Positions 12,747-46,420 of a stretch of 64,000 nt of DNA are shown here, piece by piece. Position numbers and translations under genes: made by a program. Numbering within the stretch: position 1 is the stretch's first letter; every line of letters starts with the position of its first letter. Location of the stretch: contig CAWCAG010000007.1 of assembly GCA_963793425.1 (NCBI GenBank), positions 160,001-224,000 of the forward strand. The letters run 5' to 3'. The notes beneath the pieces were generated by a model. That model did not search any database. It saw only the letters and a program-made list of their open reading frames with translations, and had not been told where the DNA came from. This stretch comes from an uncultured cyanobacterium (GTDB lineage Bacteria; Cyanobacteriota; Cyanobacteriia; Cyanobacteriales; CAWCAG01).

Positions 12747-12830
12747 TGCGGAACCCGGGACTTGAACCCGGAAGTCCTTGCGAACACATGAACCTGAATC
12801 ATGCGCGTCTACCAATTCCGCCAGTTCCGC
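12747..12830 (-). tRNA. trnL: tRNA-Leu (anticodon CAG)
   Basis: Reverse complement GCGGAAC...GGTAGACGCG CATGA TTCAGGT TCATG, long variable arm, GGTTCAAGTCC...GTTCCGCA; CCA not encoded. Confidence 0.97.
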
Positions 12831-39788: not shown

Positions 39789-40397
39789 ATGGTTCAATTA
39801 TCACCAAAACTATTAACCTTCGATGAATTTATTGAATGGCTGCCAGAGAATAGGCGCTACGAACTACATGATGGGACAATCATAGAAATGCAACCTACAG
39901 GAAAGCACGAAGATATTACAGGATTTCTCACTCAAGAATTAACCTTGGAATATACCAGAATGCAACTATCCTATCGCATTCCTCCAAAAGCACTAGTCAA
40001 ACCTCGCAATAAACAAACAGGTTACAATCGTGATTTGCTAATTGTAGACCGTTCTCAACTAGAATTAGAGCCTTTATGGGAAAAACAATCAACCCTGATT
40101 CAGGGAAAATCTGTTCCTTTAATTATCGAGGTAGTCAGTACTAATTGGCGCGATGATTATGGCTACAAACTCATTGACTACGAAGCAATAGGCATTCGTG
40201 AATACTGGATTGTAGATTATCTAGGTTTGGGGGGAGTGCGCTTTATTGGGCAACCCAAACAACCTACCATCTCTATTTATGAGCTTATTGATGGAGAATA
40301 CCAAGTAAAGCAGTTTAGGGGAAGCGAAATGATATCTTCACCGACATTCCCAAAACTCAAGCTGACTGTTGAGCAGATTTTTCAAGCTCAAAGATGA
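39789..40397 (+). CDS. Uma2 family putative endonuclease
   Basis: Close paralogue of 6600..7214; RYEL.DG, IEVVSTNWRDDY, EYWIVD. Confidence 0.9.
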   Translation: MVQLSPKLLTFDEFIEWLPENRRYELHDGTIIEMQPTGKHEDITGFLTQELTLEYTRMQLSYRIPPKALVKPRNKQTGYNRDLLIVDRSQLELEPLWEKQSTLIQGKSVPLIIEVVSTNWRDDYGYKLIDYEAIGIREYWIVDYLGLGGVRFIGQPKQPTISIYELIDGEYQVKQFRGSEMISSPTFPKLKLTVEQIFQAQR

Positions 40398-40533
40398 AGA
40401 TTATTATTATCCTAAAGGTACGGCGGTATACTGAATTTCGATACAGGTGAGGTAATCGCTGATTAATTCTATGGGAGGAACTGGTGCGATCGCTAACGGT
40501 ATAATAGTAGCTGTTTTGACGGTGATTTCTGTA

Positions 40534-41133
40534 ATGGATGAAATACCTTGGGATCTGATAATTCAGACGAAGCGCCTTATCATTCGCCCTCAAAAATATA
40601 GTGACTATAAAGCTTGGTATATCGCTTTTTCAGAACGCCTACCACAGCAGTACACATATGACGAAGGACAGATTGCTTTAGATGGCTATGATGCTGACGA
40701 GTTTACAAATATATGTAAGAGCCATCAAGAGCAAGCATCAAATGATTACGCATATATTTGGGGGATATTTCATAAACAAACAAACCGGCATATTGGCAAT
40801 ATCGACTTATCCACCATTCAACGGGAGGAAAAACAGTGGGCTAACTTGGGTTACACTATCCATAATCAATACTGGAGACAAGGGTTTGGGAAAGAAGCTG
40901 TAAGAGCCGTAATCATTGCTGGGTTTGAGCAGCTTGGATATCATCGTATTGAAGCAGCCATCAATCTTGATAATCATCCTTCTATTGCTCTTGTACAAAC
41001 TGTTGGCTTGCAAAAAGAGTGCGTTCGGCGCGGCTTTTATTATGAAAATGAGCAATGGGTAGATCATATAATTTATGTAGCTCTCCCTACTGATTTAGGT
41101 ATATCTGAGAAGCCACCAGCGATTACTACCTAG
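40534..41133 (+). CDS. GNAT family N-acetyltransferase (RimJ/RimL type)
   Basis: T.RLIIRP, LGY.I...YWRQGFGKEA, HRIEA.I..DN.PS; TATAAT at about 40500 favours ATG 40534. Confidence 0.88.
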   Translation: MDEIPWDLIIQTKRLIIRPQKYSDYKAWYIAFSERLPQQYTYDEGQIALDGYDADEFTNICKSHQEQASNDYAYIWGIFHKQTNRHIGNIDLSTIQREEKQWANLGYTIHNQYWRQGFGKEAVRAVIIAGFEQLGYHRIEAAINLDNHPSIALVQTVGLQKECVRRGFYYENEQWVDHIIYVALPTDLGISEKPPAITT

Positions 41134-41245
41134 AGTGTCAGCGCAGTCTTGATTTTAGTAGAAATGGGAAGTGTCCAGACAATATCTAGTTTTAGCATTT
41201 CACGAACCTGAAATTAGTCAGTATACGGATTTTGGTACAGGTGAA

Positions 41246-41274
41246 GTGTAGGCAAAGCCAGCCGTAGGAATAGC
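41246..41274 (+). repeat. SDR5-like 21-nt insertion in a degenerate HIP1 site
   Basis: GTG[TAGGCAAAGCCAGCCGTAGGA]ATAGC. Confidence 0.5.
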
Positions 41275-41380
41275 TAATTAATTCCATCTAGAAATTGGTG
41301 TGATCGCGCTTTTGCTAGTTAGTCCCATAATGTATAAATCATGTCAATGATTCATAATTATCAGCTATAGTTAAAACATA

Positions 41381-41518
41381 GGATGCAGCAGACACACTCT
41401 TCGCAAAAGCGAGTGTGACATCCCGTTACCTTCATCGGTCGAGGAAAATCCGGTAAAGACGTTCTGAATACCAAAATGCGAATTTTGGCGAAGGCTCCTT
41501 AAGGAGTCTTTGTTATTT
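41381..41518 (+). ncRNA. Candidate structured non-coding RNA (family not recognised)
   Basis: TATAGT -10-like box at 41366; three stems including CCAAAAT-GCGA-ATTTTGG; terminator at the 3' end; GC-rich island within AT-rich DNA. Confidence 0.55.
41491..41518 (+). terminator. Intrinsic terminator
   Basis: AAGGCTCC-ttaa-GGAGTCTT followed by TGTTATTT. Confidence 0.65.
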
Positions 41519-41772
41519 ATGGGAAAGACTGGATAATATGTGAAAGTTTCTCCAGCTTTTCACCTCCTTTACAGTATTAAATTTCATATCTTGAAGAGAG
41601 CTAAAAATTAAGTAAAATTTCTACATCAAGGAATCATACTATAAATAACTTTGTAGTTATCTGGTTTGTTTCGACACAATTAATTGCTATTGACTATTAA
41701 AAAAACAGCAACTCTTTTAACCATGAGTTATCGTAGTAAGCATAACTGGCGCTTTCCGTGGGAAAAGTTGTG

Positions 41773-43545
41773 ATGAGAAAGCTTTTATTAATTAGTCTAT
41801 TTGTTATAGGGCTAGGTTTTGCTCTATTTAACTTTAAAGGTTTAGCCGCTAAAGGGAACTATGATTCCATTGTTCTAGATTTCCGTGAGGATATTTCTCA
41901 AACGGAAATTGAAGGGGAATTAAACAAAATCTCTCAACAATATCAAGTTGCCCCCAGGCTTAATAGTGAATTTTCGCTTCAAGACAACCTTTATATTATC
42001 AACGGTGATAAAAAGGTTCTTAATGCTCTCAGAAAATCTGACTTGAGTAAAGATACAGAATATATTGAACCTAACTATATTTATGGCATCAACGCCCTCG
42101 CTGCCCCCAATGACCCGAAATATGGGGAACAGTGGAATATGCGTAGCATTAATGTAGAACAAGCTTGGGAAGAAACGAAAGGGGCAGGAATTACTGTCGC
42201 GGTTATTGATACAGGAGTAAGTCAGATTCAGGATTTAGAACAAACTAAATTTGTTCCTGGCTACGATTTTGTCAACGATAAGGTAGAAGCCGGGGATGAT
42301 AACGGCCATGGAACCCATGTAGCCGGAACTATTGCCCAATCTACTAATAATAATTATGGTGTCGTGGGTATTGCCCATGAAGCTAACATTATGCCCTTAA
42401 AAGTGCTAGCAGCACAGGGGGGCGGAACCATCGCTGATATTGCTGAAGCCATTCGTTTCGCTGCTGACAATGATGCAGATGTGATTAACATGAGTTTGGG
42501 TGGCGGCGGCGCAAGTCATGTTTTGGAAGAAGCCATTGATTATGCTTATAGCAAAGATGTGGTCATTATCGCTGCGGCGGGTAATGCTGGTCAAAATTCT
42601 TCCTCTTATCCCGCCCGCTATCCCAAAGTAATTAGCGTCTCTGCTGTTGATGCTGTAGGAGAGAAAGCCCCCTATTCTAATTACGGTGCAGGGGTTGATA
42701 TTTCTGCTCCTGGGGGCAGTGAGAAAGGTAAAATTGTTCAAGAAACAGTTAACCCTAGTGATGGACAAGCTGTATTTGTCGGCTTCCAGGGTACAAGCAT
42801 GGCTGCACCCCATGTTGCAGGAGTTGCAGCTTTAGTTAAAGCTTCTGGTATTGAAAAACCGGAAGAAGTACGGGAAGTCTTGTTAGAATCAGTCAGGAAA
42901 GTAGAAGAAGATCCTTTAAACCACTTTGGGGCAGGACAATTAGATGCCGCAGAAGCGGTAAAACTAGCTTTGAAGGGGCAAGTTACTTTTAAAGATTTCT
43001 TCCGTTGGTTAAACAAAAATGGTTATCTTAACCTCCGCTTCTGGTTTGATGGCGGTGTTGTCGCCCTGCCACCGAAATTAATTATGGTTTTAGGTTCCTA
43101 TCTTTTAGCCTTCTTACTACGTAATTATTTACCTTTCGGCAATCTCTTCTTCACTGGAGGAATGATTTTTGGGAGTTCCGGGCTATTTTTCCTACGGGGT
43201 TTATATATTTACGATTTACCCCAATGGCCTTTAAGAGTAGCAGGTAGTTCCCTCCCGGAAATAGGTAACGCGATTACCGGAAGTACCAGTTTGAATCCTC
43301 TTTTTGCTAGTGTGTTGATTCCTTTCCTTTTAGTTGCCTTATTATTAAGTACTTCTAACTGGAAATGGTTTGCCGTTGGTTCTACTATTGGTGTAGCTTC
43401 TTGCTTACTGGTTAATGCGGTTATAGACCCTGCTGTGTGGGGTTTAGGTACAGGATTAATGGCTAGTGGTTTCTTGGGTATTAACGCTTTGTTATGTTTG
43501 GTGTTAGCTTATTTTGCCACAAAAGGAGAAAAGCAAGTTGCTTGA
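41773..43545 (+). CDS. Subtilisin-like S8 serine peptidase with C-terminal membrane domain
   Basis: Catalytic triad VIDTG, HGTHVAG, GTSMAAPHVAG; N-terminal signal anchor; hydrophobic C-terminus. Confidence 0.93.
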   Translation: MRKLLLISLFVIGLGFALFNFKGLAAKGNYDSIVLDFREDISQTEIEGELNKISQQYQVAPRLNSEFSLQDNLYIINGDKKVLNALRKSDLSKDTEYIEPNYIYGINALAAPNDPKYGEQWNMRSINVEQAWEETKGAGITVAVIDTGVSQIQDLEQTKFVPGYDFVNDKVEAGDDNGHGTHVAGTIAQSTNNNYGVVGIAHEANIMPLKVLAAQGGGTIADIAEAIRFAADNDADVINMSLGGGGASHVLEEAIDYAYSKDVVIIAAAGNAGQNSSSYPARYPKVISVSAVDAVGEKAPYSNYGAGVDISAPGGSEKGKIVQETVNPSDGQAVFVGFQGTSMAAPHVAGVAALVKASGIEKPEEVREVLLESVRKVEEDPLNHFGAGQLDAAEAVKLALKGQVTFKDFFRWLNKNGYLNLRFWFDGGVVALPPKLIMVLGSYLLAFLLRNYLPFGNLFFTGGMIFGSSGLFFLRGLYIYDLPQWPLRVAGSSLPEIGNAITGSTSLNPLFASVLIPFLLVALLLSTSNWKWFAVGSTIGVASCLLVNAVIDPAVWGLGTGLMASGFLGINALLCLVLAYFATKGEKQVA

Positions 43546-43910: not shown

Positions 43911-44005
43911 TCAATGATCACATGGATAGTTGAAAAGAAACTTTTAAACTAAGAAGTTAATCTTTAGTAGTTAGTGTCGGTTACATTCAAGCAAGATTGA
44001 CCTTA

Positions 44006-46420
44006 ATGTGCCAGGAATTTGTTATCTCTGTAACTCCTTTGGGAGAAGATGAATATTTAGTGCGAACGGAGAAAGTTGCGCCCGGAGTTCCCCCTGCGGA
44101 AGAAAAAGTTCACTGGTTGGTGAATAATTGGTTAGAGCAAGGGCAGGAATTGATGGATGATCCGATCTTGCGTTTGCTTCAAGGGCAAAATCTTTTGGGA
44201 GACAAATTTGCTGAAGAACTTTTTTCTACCTCAGAAGATAATAAACTAGAAAAAGATCAAGCTCAACAATCTCGTCGTAATTTAGTTTCTTTGGGACAAC
44301 AACTTTACGAGGCTTTGTTCCAAGGTAGCTTGCTTAATAGTTGGATGATTGCCCAAGGAATTGCAGATAACCATCGTGCTTGCTTGCGCCTCCGCTTAGG
44401 TTTAAAAGACGCTAAAACTCGCAGCTTGCCTTGGGAAGTACTCCACGCTGAAGATCGCCCCCTGGCTACTGGGGTGGATATTGCTTTTTCTCGCTATCAA
44501 CCTAATACTTTGGCCAAAAATCTTAACGACTTATCTCCTTTGGCAAAAAACCAATCCCTGAAAATTTTAATGGCGATCGCAGGGCCAAATGACCAAGAGA
44601 GTCTAGAGTTAAAAGAAGAAGCTATTCAACTAACCGAAGAACTTCAGCGCCATGGTTCCCAAAATTCCCACAACTTACCGCCTGTGGAAGTAACCTTACT
44701 CGAACAGCCAGGAAGAGAGGAATTAACCCAAGCTTTGGAACAAGGAAAATACCAAATTTTCCACTACGCTGGTCATAGTGGTTTAGGAGACTCCGGTGGC
44801 GGGCTTTATTTGGTTAGTCGGAAAACTGGCTTAACAGAAGTATTTTCTGGGGAAGACTTAGCCGGATTACTGGTTAACAACAAAGTGCAGTTGGCTGTCT
44901 TCAATTCCTGTCGTGGGGCAAAAACTGAATGGGAAAGCATTGGGGATCAAAGCCCAAGAAGCAACCTTGCTGATGCAGCTATTAAGCGCGGTGTACCCGC
45001 TGTTTTAGCCATGGCAGAAAGGATTCCCGATGCAGTAGCCCTCAATTTAACCAGACTCCTTTATCGCAACATTAGCCAAGGACATCCCATTGATTTAAGC
45101 CTTAGTCGCGCTAGACAGGGCTTAATTGCAACTTATGGTTCTAATCAACTCTATTGGGCTTTACCCATACTCTACCTCGCTCCTGAGTTTCCCGGCATTA
45201 TTGCCCAAGCAGAAGCAACTGAGGGATATTCTTCTAAGTTAGTGAATTTAACTCAAGGAAGGGATAGTGGTTTAACAGAAGAAGAAGAAAAAGCACTGCT
45301 TTTTTCCCCCCAAACCCTTGATTTTATTCAAGAAGAACAATTAGATAGCTATCCCCACAATCAGCTAAACGATGATGGAGAATTAACTAAAGCAGATTGG
45401 TTAGAAGAAGAAGAAGAAGAAAAAGATAATCTTGACGAAGATCGGGCTTTGATTGAAGATATGTTCAATCAGCTAACTCCTAATCGAAGTGCTAAAGAAG
45501 AAGGCAAACCTGTATCGGAAACATCTTTGGATGATTCTCCATCTGTTAGTGAACAAGAATTAAAACCACCTCATCAAAGAAGAGAACATTGGATTCAAGG
45601 ACTATCTCCTTTGCTTTTAGGGGCAGTTAGTGCCATTGCGATCGCCGCTTTAGGTTTTTGGCTATTTTCTGAACGTCTGCCTTTCCTTAAATCTTCTCCT
45701 CTGCCTGGTGATGAGGTAGTAACTAGCTTAGATAAGCCGGGTGATCTTGCTAAAGCAGATAATGATGTCTTAACGGGTTTGGCGATTGAAGAATTTAGTC
45801 AAAAGGATCTGCAAAAAGGCATCCCCGCCGTAGCAGCATTACTTGACCGAGGGGCTTTAGAATATGCAAAATCAGCCCTAGAAGCCGTTCCTACTGAGCA
45901 AATCAACGAACCTGATATTCTTTTCCTTAAAGGCAGACTAGCTTGGCAAGCAGCCCAATCAGGAGACGAGAAATTCTCTGTTGACGATGCCAGAAGGTTT
46001 TGGGAGTCAGCAATCAAAGAACAGGAAAACTCCCCAGTAACAGAAAAACTAACAGAGGCTATCCCCTATCACAATGCTTTAGGTTTTGCTTACTACGCAG
46101 AAGGTAAATACAACGAGGCTAATCAAGCTTGGTATGATGCTTTAGAATTAGCTGAACAAACAGAAACCCTTGATAGCGACTCAGAGGAGTTACTTGATGC
46201 TTACGCTGGTTTAGCATTGGGGTTAAACAAACTGGCTGAAGCAAAATCACCGGAGGATTCCCCAGAATTTCTTGCTGATAAAGCAATTAAACTCAGGAAA
46301 ATGGTTATTACCAAAAAACCCAAAAGTTTCACCCCTGAAGCCCTAAGTCAAAACTGGCTTTGGCCCCCTGAAGCAATTGAAGATTGGCAAGAATTGTTGT
46401 CAATGAACAATGAACAATAA
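44006..46420 (+). CDS. hetF: CHAT (caspase-like) domain protease, HetF homologue, with TM helix and TPR-like C-terminus
   Basis: QEF.ISVTP.G.DEYLVRTE.VAPGVP, LPWE, FHYAGH (His), FNSC (Cys), YWALP; ends NWLW....I.DW. Confidence 0.85.
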   Translation: MCQEFVISVTPLGEDEYLVRTEKVAPGVPPAEEKVHWLVNNWLEQGQELMDDPILRLLQGQNLLGDKFAEELFSTSEDNKLEKDQAQQSRRNLVSLGQQLYEALFQGSLLNSWMIAQGIADNHRACLRLRLGLKDAKTRSLPWEVLHAEDRPLATGVDIAFSRYQPNTLAKNLNDLSPLAKNQSLKILMAIAGPNDQESLELKEEAIQLTEELQRHGSQNSHNLPPVEVTLLEQPGREELTQALEQGKYQIFHYAGHSGLGDSGGGLYLVSRKTGLTEVFSGEDLAGLLVNNKVQLAVFNSCRGAKTEWESIGDQSPRSNLADAAIKRGVPAVLAMAERIPDAVALNLTRLLYRNISQGHPIDLSLSRARQGLIATYGSNQLYWALPILYLAPEFPGIIAQAEATEGYSSKLVNLTQGRDSGLTEEEEKALLFSPQTLDFIQEEQLDSYPHNQLNDDGELTKADWLEEEEEEKDNLDEDRALIEDMFNQLTPNRSAKEEGKPVSETSLDDSPSVSEQELKPPHQRREHWIQGLSPLLLGAVSAIAIAALGFWLFSERLPFLKSSPLPGDEVVTSLDKPGDLAKADNDVLTGLAIEEFSQKDLQKGIPAVAALLDRGALEYAKSALEAVPTEQINEPDILFLKGRLAWQAAQSGDEKFSVDDARRFWESAIKEQENSPVTEKLTEAIPYHNALGFAYYAEGKYNEANQAWYDALELAEQTETLDSDSEELLDAYAGLALGLNKLAEAKSPEDSPEFLADKAIKLRKMVITKKPKSFTPEALSQNWLWPPEAIEDWQELLSMNNEQ

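Follow-up and report, generated by a model that had tools for sequence, protein, structure and literature searches.

An orphan member of the SroH RNA family in a cyanobacterial genome, and the linkage of the family to yjaZ, whose product it may restrain

What is the structured RNA that appears to be encoded in a 64,000-nucleotide (nt) stretch of DNA from an uncultured cyanobacterium (contig CAWCAG010000007.1, positions 160,001 to 224,000; this whole stretch is called the window, and positions are counted from its first letter), and what might such an RNA do? An initial annotation, made from the letters alone, had marked positions 41360-41520 as a structured RNA of no recognized kind and had offered three explanations: a standalone small RNA (sRNA), an orphan riboswitch or ribozyme, or the RNA component of a mobile or toxin-antitoxin (TA) system. 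The checks that it proposed, on homologues, covariation and gene context, yielded about 100 relatives, compensatory changes at paired positions and a recurrent neighbor, the protein gene yjaZ, indicating that the window copy belongs, as a new and distant cyanobacterial member, to SroH, a known RNA family of unknown function. The window holds an orphan SroH-family RNA, and we lean, with modest confidence, toward the reading that RNAs of this family bind and restrain the YjaZ protein in a manner resembling a type III TA system.

The Rfam sroH model (RF00372) matched 41354-41512 on the + strand from end to end (51.5 bits; E 4.3e-11; model positions 1-161 of 161), so that the RNA could be recognized as a distant sroH member after all. 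By E-value this is a full-length match, but its score lies below the 80-bit gathering score of the family, and at the gathering thresholds Rfam reported only a tRNA (12747-12830) in the window. In the Rfam alignment of the sroH model, structure is marked for the terminator alone. Weak matches to mir-9412, MIR4372 and RAGATH-36 in the vicinity (E 0.06-5) were taken as chance. A covariance model, R1, was built on a hand-set nested structure from 36 relatives, with the window and Escherichia coli excluded from the seed. R1 scored the window at 131.4 bits and the E. coli loci at about 106.5 bits, each over positions 1-129 of 129, and matched 99/100 sources searched; a Paenibacillus locus found by pattern (L069) contained no RNA by R1 and was set aside as a chance pattern match. 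One model therefore covers both the window RNA and E. coli SroH, and the same blocks follow in the same order in the two, beginning with GGAUGCAGCAGAC, GACAUCC-CG and ACC-hairpin-GGUC.AGG and continuing with CCGGUAA.G.CGUUCUGAAUACC, a hairpin, GGCGAA, the terminator and UUUGUUAUUU. We rest family membership on these shared blocks in order and on the single covariance model rather than on the Rfam score, the Rfam cut-off being an operational one. These data indicate that the window RNA is a distant member of the SroH family in the wide sense, with a score below the RF00372 gathering score.

The elements of the RNA gene are as follows.

41380..41518, + strand: SroH-family RNA gene, 139 nt, composed of a core of about 110 nt and the terminator
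41367..41372, + strand: -10 box TATAGT, 8 nt upstream of the first RNA model position
41381-85 / 41419-23 (GGATG/CATCC), + strand: helix P1, which encloses the invariant 7-nt bulge CAGCAGA (41386-92) and P2
41393-99 / 41411-17 (CACACTC/GAGTGTG), + strand: variable hairpin P2, inside P1
CGU 41424-26 with ACG 41459-61, + strand: pseudoknot PK1, which spans P3 and P4
ACC 41428-30 / GGU 41437-39, + strand: local hairpin P3
41443-45 / 41449-51, + strand: small hairpin P4
41462..41470, + strand: single-stranded block UUCUGAAUA, near-invariant among relatives
41471-77 / 41482-88, + strand: hairpin P5 (CCAAAAT-GCGA-ATTTTGG), with loop GCGA
41491-98 / 41503-10, + strand: intrinsic terminator hairpin with one G-U pair, then TTTGTTATTT
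41491..41518, + strand: terminator region, which ends in the conserved RNA tail UUUGUUAUUU

This architecture was compared in two alignments, A5, which comprised 88 distinct sequences gathered by RNA pattern, and A7, which comprised 43 distinct sequences gathered via the protein neighbor and is free of RNA-pattern bias. Standard pairs occupied 97.3% (A5) and 97.7% (A7) of the cells, and compensatory changes were observed at 19/36 and 23/36 pairs, respectively; none of 500 shuffles (0/500) reached the observed values, and slid alignments paired in only 33-49% of cells. The first stem of the initial annotation, GGATG/CATCC around CACACTC/GAGTGTG, is present as P1 and P2, and both parts covary: compensatory changes were found at 3/5 pairs of P1 in both alignments and at 4/5 (A5) and 5/5 (A7) pairs of P2, whose sequence is wholly unlike that of its counterpart in the relative genome G008 while the pairing is kept. 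The second stem survived in part, since its CGT (41424-26) and ACG (41459-61) are supported as the pseudoknot PK1, while its ACC pairs locally with GGT 41437-39 in P3. PK1, which was not in the model used to align, is paired in 99.6% (A5) and 100% (A7) of cases, and 2/3 of its pairs are compensated (G-C to A-U, U-A to C-G). P3 is a hairpin of variable length whose fourth pair covaries, and P4 is invariant among relatives and so carries no covariation signal. The third stem, at 41471-88, is P5, with compensatory changes at 4/7 (A5) and 6/7 (A7) pairs; its loop varies in sequence and length among relatives, so the GCGA tetraloop on which the initial annotation had drawn is not a feature of the family. 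The terminator with its G-U pair is where the annotation had seen it, and 5/6 (A5) and 6/6 (A7) of its modelled pairs are compensated. A possible long-range pairing between CAGA (41389-92) and UCUG (41463-66), here termed PK2, fared less well: both sequences are present, but no pair is compensated in either alignment, and the few sequences that depart lose the pairing. The CUG of UCUG is invariant in 43/43 distinct sequences of the protein-gathered set. RNAalifold, run on a first MAFFT alignment, proposed GGAUGC/GCGUUC in place of P1, and this was rejected because a Vibrio-type change keeps P1 and breaks the proposed helix. As a whole, the comparison supports five helices and one pseudoknot, a fold that is conserved across phyla.

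The TATAGT box is present at 41367-72 and not at 41366-71, where it had first been placed, and a sigma-70-type promoter (at least 9/12 positions) occupies the same place in 58/90 distinct upstream regions of relatives, the commonest being TTGACA / TATATT. In the window the -35 is poor (TCAATG, 2/6 matches). A simple consensus scan called no promoter at the TATAGT site of the window, and a simple terminator scan of 41100-41800 called none, the terminator of the RNA included. The single-sequence fold of the + strand has a free energy of -40.6 kcal/mol (z -2.31; equalled by 6/200 shuffles), and that of the opposite strand has a z of -1.71. The description of the site as a GC-rich island holds weakly, as the GC content in 140-nt profile windows is 0.41 over the RNA region, 0.37-0.42 upstream and 0.26-0.33 downstream (0.45 for the RNA alone). 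The statement that the site has no open reading frame (ORF) needs the qualification that a trivial 37-codon ORF on the minus strand overlaps the RNA and that a 24-codon yjaZ remnant, described below, was found. Homology and covariation lead us to regard this + strand RNA, which has a -10 box and an intrinsic terminator of its own, as a real structured RNA, the support from single-sequence folding being only modest. A look-up of sequencing runs that contain this DNA listed four DNA runs from sediment metagenomes, which may be its source, and one further run with a small share of its sequence words, and no RNA run was among those listed.

The gene context of the relatives pointed to a partner. 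Read on the opposite strand, a conserved stretch 3' of the terminator encodes the C-terminal end of a protein about 180 amino acids (aa) long; the G008 protein shares 49% identity with E. coli YjaZ and is matched by NCBIfam NF007263 with an E-value of 4e-48, and in G008 and many other cyanobacteria an intact yjaZ is convergent with the RNA. The linkage was surveyed from both sides. Starting from the RNA, 99 loci were classified with a profile of 19 YjaZ proteins; the flanks were too short at 19 loci, and at the 80 loci with enough flank yjaZ was intact at 54, partial at 8 and absent at 18. Starting from the protein, the RNA was found beside yjaZ at 79/80 metagenome loci, the exception having 24 nt of flank, and was adjacent in 7/9 viral-contig loci and 9/11 cyanobacterial genomes; the four viral and cyanobacterial cases without RNA comprise partial matches of 33-36% identity, a fragment of 37 residues and one distant hit. 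Thus, no intact close YjaZ without the RNA exists among the loci surveyed, and the RNA without YjaZ is common, accounting for about half of the cyanobacterial loci.

The order of the two genes differs between lineages. In cyanobacteria and enterobacteria yjaZ is convergent with the RNA, and the overlap of the two genes is confined to their 3' tails. In the Alteromonadales, Vibrio and Shewanella types yjaZ lies on the same strand without overlap, in the order promoter, RNA, terminator, gene. At 14/16 of the same-strand loci yjaZ starts 20-27 nt past the RNA tail, behind a Shine-Dalgarno-like AAGGA, which leaves no room for a promoter of its own, so that yjaZ would be read from the promoter of the RNA. 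Because the adjacency has survived inversion, it argues for a link between the products of the two genes and not for an antisense overlap. The same-strand layout, together with the compact, aptamer-like fold and its invariant unpaired blocks, would also suit a riboswitch-like leader that acts in cis, senses a ligand or signal and controls terminator read-through into yjaZ. Such a leader is impossible, however, where yjaZ is convergent, as it is in cyanobacteria and enterobacteria; no alternative pairings competing with the terminator were seen, and no Rfam riboswitch family matched the RNA. Nor is the S8 protease gene downstream of the window RNA a conserved neighbor: this gene adjoins the RNA at 0/24 relatives surveyed, which, with yjaZ convergent in this lineage, disposes of a riboswitch for the protease. 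We consider a cis-acting role highly improbable.

Around the pair, the 110 ORFs surveyed at 24 loci include no third gene that recurs throughout. Integrases lie near the pair at 6/24 loci, and genes for IstB, for plasmid partition or replication and of toxin or defense type adjoin it at several loci; ParE, TIR-domain, Uma2 and XisHI genes are among the neighbors. These data indicate that the RNA and yjaZ form a self-contained two-gene cassette that moves among chromosomes, plasmids and predicted prophages. Of the three explanations offered at first, the RNA component of a mobile or TA system thus fits best, the RNA being the partner of yjaZ in a mobile module; a standalone sRNA is an apt description in this genome only, where the partner has been deleted. 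In the literature searched no paper names sroH together with yjaZ, and nothing on the function of yjaZ, also known as htrC, was found.

Four gammaproteobacterial loci (L020, L030, L040 and L055) have a tyrosine integrase, a 160-aa ORF without family and an IstB-like ATPase by the pair, at about 100-2500 nt from the RNA, and this shared trio suggests that one kind of mobile element carries the module. In G008, two overlapping ORFs of 81 and 148 aa lie directly upstream of the RNA-yjaZ pair (L007 690-1378, + strand) and by eye resemble another small two-gene module.

What, then, became of yjaZ in the window? Two features describe its present state.

41513..41587, - strand: yjaZ remnant, 24 codons plus stop, matching YjaZ profile positions 2-18 (E about 3e-4 to 8e-4)
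40396..41705: strain-specific segment, which holds a GNAT acetyltransferase gene (40471-41133), the RNA and the yjaZ remnant

The first 15 residues of the remnant correspond to the N-terminus of the family and its last few codons derive from the 3' end of yjaZ, with the stop codon inside the RNA tail as at intact loci. In comparison with two intact Microcoleus-type loci, about 483 yjaZ alignment columns are missing in a single block; only 240 nt separate the RNA from the S8 protease gene, and neither NF007263 nor the YjaZ profile detected a second yjaZ in the genome, which is 98.6% complete. An adjacent yjaZ arranged tail to tail with the RNA is present here only as the 24-codon remnant. These data indicate that yjaZ at this locus has lost about 480 bp, evidently by deletion, leaving the RNA an orphan. 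The locus resembles that of E. coli SroH in having a convergent partner gene whose stop codon lies within the RNA tail; it differs in its Rfam score (51.5 against the gathering score of 80 bits), in the sequence and length of P2 and P3, in its cyanobacterial host and in the reduction of the partner to 24 codons.

The deletion looks recent, because the 45 nt of N-terminal yjaZ sequence that are left, which should be neutral, still match the family consensus. This bears on whether the window RNA gene is merely a silent, functionless relic that has not yet decayed. The deleted partner, the apparent recency of the deletion and the lost -35 would all be expected of a relic, and some orphan RNAs elsewhere have changed at conserved columns, defined here as the 59 columns with a conservation of 97% or more in partnered RNAs. 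On the other hand, the window RNA has 0 deviations at these 59 columns, its terminator is intact and its -10 box is kept, and 15/25 distinct orphan RNAs are likewise without change at conserved columns. That the window copy is such a relic is a serious possibility, although we would not put it at even chances. The window orphan may be a recent relic or a kept neutralizer of incoming YjaZ, and we choose neither.

The surroundings of the orphan were also compared with the same-genus genome G001. The strain-specific segment has no counterpart at the corresponding place in G001; homology between the two genomes begins again at about 41706, upstream of which G001 carries another gene, and window positions 39800-40395 match G001 about 293 kb from the match of the S8 protease region. 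A gene of the Uma2 family (putative restriction endonuclease) lies just left of the strain-specific segment (39789-40397, + strand); as its DNA and the S8 region are about 293 kb apart in G001, this place marks a rearrangement joint. Locus L026 likewise has a Uma2 gene next to its RNA. The start of the S8 protease gene, at 41758, lies 240 nt past the RNA end, close to the 250 nt of the initial annotation; the gene encodes a subtilase with a C-terminal DUF5942 domain (41758-43545, + strand) and is followed by a gene for a CHAT-domain (caspase-like) protein (43997-46420, + strand).

The RNA is widespread in two bacterial groups. In blastn searches, the 3' half of the RNA was found at about 76-81% identity in 3741/5426 complete E. 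coli genomes, where the genomic copy lies between thiH and yjaZ, and also on E. coli plasmids of about 90 kb with phage-type genes; in E. coli and Shigella, SroH adjoins yjaZ (htrC) in the interval between thiH and rpoC. The genome from which the window comes contains a single copy. Across 40 relatives, blastn detected the RNA only in G008 (80% identity), with a weak 41-nt match in G022, and did not find it in G001 or the same-family genome G002. A search with the conserved core pattern returned 8 viral contigs and 112 places in contigs representing one genome per species; for the final 19 of these loci (L112-L130), inspection was by eye and not with R1. The cyanobacterial hosts in this search include Microcoleus, Dolichospermum, Nostoc, Calothrix, Planktothrix, Spirulina, Pseudanabaena and others, the gammaproteobacterial hosts are Alteromonadales, Shewanella, Vibrio, Psychromonas, Escherichia, Serratia and Erwinia, and a few odd metagenome-assembled genomes were also among the hosts. 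Calothrix sp. NIES-2100 and Nostoc linckia FACHB-104 are among the named cyanobacterial strains at these loci. In a model-based sample of the window's order, 8/151 genomes carried the RNA, at 9 loci of which 4 have an intact yjaZ. In three genomes (G000, G060 and G175) the RNA is present and no YjaZ was detected anywhere in the genome at E <= 1e-5. Among phage records, blastn with the window RNA matched one record only, and blastn with the E. coli SroH locus matched none. Vibrio phage 1.262.O carries a full-length copy of the RNA (110.9 bits) just upstream of a terminase-like gene, and its record, which is partial, contains no YjaZ.

Genome G485 has two copies of the RNA (L160 and L166), one with an intact yjaZ and the other without any. 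The plasmid-type E. coli copies (L005, L011 and L012) have a longer P3 insert, which repeats the GGUCAA motif within that hairpin.

Could the RNA be an ordinary trans-acting sRNA that base-pairs with mRNA targets of its own, with yjaZ as a passenger? SroH has been treated in this way in E. coli. Transcripts of SroH are reported there (PMC5389530), and an in vitro interaction between SroH and kbl mRNA and an envelope-stress phenotype of a sroH deletion are also reported. The orphan copies in the three genomes without YjaZ would be natural under this explanation. Between E. coli and cyanobacteria, however, the sequence keeps about 75-80% identity, the pseudoknotted fold is unchanged and one and the same protein gene lies alongside, in either gene order; this is atypical of such an sRNA, whose targets would need to be conserved across phyla and phages. 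We therefore consider this explanation improbable, though less so than a cis-acting leader.

The nature of YjaZ bears on what the RNA might do to it. YjaZ is a basic protein of about 180 aa (median pI 9.1), and its confident structure model (pLDDT 85.7, pTM 0.82) is a mixed sheet-and-helix globule. Its invariant residues include H58, R84, R90, R148, H150 and Y155, numbered as in the G008 protein. When this model was compared with 48,161 chains, the top neighbors, all weak, were almost only toxins of the RelE, ParE, BrnT, HigB and YoeB kinds and CdiA-CT and colicin D RNase toxins. A sequence comparison with the Protein Data Bank (PDB) found nothing meaningful, and the only matches in the ESM Atlas were clusters named YjaZ, the Pfam entry PF27200, which is a newer one, and a 'Phage P1-related' cluster.

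A protein of this kind beside a structured RNA invites comparison with the type III TA systems ToxIN, CptIN, TenpIN and AbiQ, which likewise consist of a pseudoknotted non-coding RNA and one small protein gene and are mobile. According to PMC5086642, a type III operon is composed of a promoter, an RNA, a Rho-independent terminator and the protein gene, and its RNAs are pseudoknotted; the same-strand gammaproteobacterial SroH-yjaZ loci have this layout (14/16 loci). The window and the other cyanobacterial loci differ in being convergent, with no bicistronic operon. SroH-type RNAs differ further from type III antitoxins in being a single unit of about 110 nt and not a tandem array of short repeats, and YjaZ differs from type III toxins in matching no Pfam or PADLOC family and in having weak fold neighbors that are RelE-like; moreover, sroH deletion is reported to be viable in E. 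coli. Phages are described as using RNA mimics (pseudo-ToxI) against ToxIN (PMC3475682), and the RNA of Vibrio phage 1.262.O, found without YjaZ, offers a parallel. Type I TA systems are a poorer likeness, as the overlap here involves only the 3' tails and YjaZ is a basic globule of 180 aa, not a small hydrophobic toxin.

One further resemblance was noted in phage T4, upstream of or within the annotated start of vs.8 (L018 6830-6940, - strand), where a stretch of about 45 nt looks by eye like the central part of the RNA: CCCGC.AACC, a hairpin, AGGUCGAG and then CGGUAAUGG. This element has neither the 5' GGAUGCAGCAGAC block nor the UUCUGAAUACC block, and its 3' blocks differ; it gave no match to Rfam sroH, and R1 scored it at 11.9 bits (E 0.5-0.7).

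From these comparisons we infer that the RNA restrains YjaZ. Five observations lead to this: the type III layout of the same-strand loci, the one-sided pattern of loss (yjaZ is often broken or gone with the RNA kept, and the reverse was not found among close homologues), the basic character of YjaZ, its weak, toxin-like fold neighbors and the phage copy. In the proposed mechanism, the RNA would act in trans and bind YjaZ through its invariant single-stranded blocks and its pseudoknot, and would thereby keep YjaZ in check, as the RNA antitoxin does in a type III TA or abortive-infection (Abi) module; the terminator between the RNA and the gene would set a high ratio of RNA to protein.

Several points weigh against restraint of this kind. 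The asymmetry of loss could partly reflect target size, given a gene of 550 nt and an RNA of 140 nt. In E. coli, the deletion of sroH is viable and confers only sensitivity to envelope stress, according to PMC5389530 and PMC13572404, which would be unexpected for the sole antidote to an active toxin. The top structural neighbors of YjaZ reach a Z of only 3.0-4.5, below the noise guidance of the aligner; Foldseek of the model against the PDB gave nothing at E <= 0.001, and searches of Pfam, PADLOC and PHROGs gave no family match. The RNA is a single unit, with no tandem repeats in 41200-41760 at a minimum score of 30, and the window promoter lacks the -35 found in relatives. Finally, 10/25 distinct orphan RNAs have 1-4 changes at conserved columns against 3/46 partnered RNAs, a comparison that favors the latter because the columns were defined on them, and on this ground orphan RNAs may be decaying.

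The main rival to restraint is a ribonucleoprotein effector in which YjaZ could act only with the RNA as its cofactor, scaffold or guide; the RNA alone, as here, would be inert. A cofactor role fits the linkage as well as restraint does: it explains equally well that no intact YjaZ is found without the RNA, and it accounts for the invariant single-stranded blocks and for the viability of the sroH deletion. It leaves unexplained, however, the presence of the RNA without the protein in phages and at about half of the cyanobacterial loci, as well as the terminator of the same-strand loci, which would favor an excess of RNA over protein. We judge this role unlikely, though less so than base-pairing with mRNA targets.

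Restraint of YjaZ by the RNA could be taken further, to a new class of RNA-protein TA or Abi system in which a RelE-like (BECR-fold) RNase would be held by a single-copy pseudoknotted RNA of about 110 nt, the module would have been transferred from enterobacteria to cyanobacteria, and the orphans on chromosomes and in phages would serve as antidotes or decoys. We put this forward tentatively and as doubtful, with less confidence than restraint itself.

What the finding means lies more in the family comparison, that is, in an RNA-protein module that spans phyla and is laid out much as type III systems are, than in the window copy, which is a by-product of the family story and no new system by itself. 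The literature searched still presents SroH as a small RNA of E. coli whose function is unknown. The window copy and its roughly 100 relatives show that the SroH fold is pseudoknotted and conserved, which sets the RNA apart from typical base-pairing sRNAs, and tie SroH-type RNAs to one protein gene across phyla and in two gene orders; the window itself adds a clean example of the loss of yjaZ with the RNA kept, through an internal deletion of about 480 bp. An RNA labelled 'function unknown' thereby acquires a testable idea, that of an RNA restraining a protein. If this is true, SroH and yjaZ would constitute a new kind of RNA-antidote module, and phages would have a reason for carrying look-alike RNAs.

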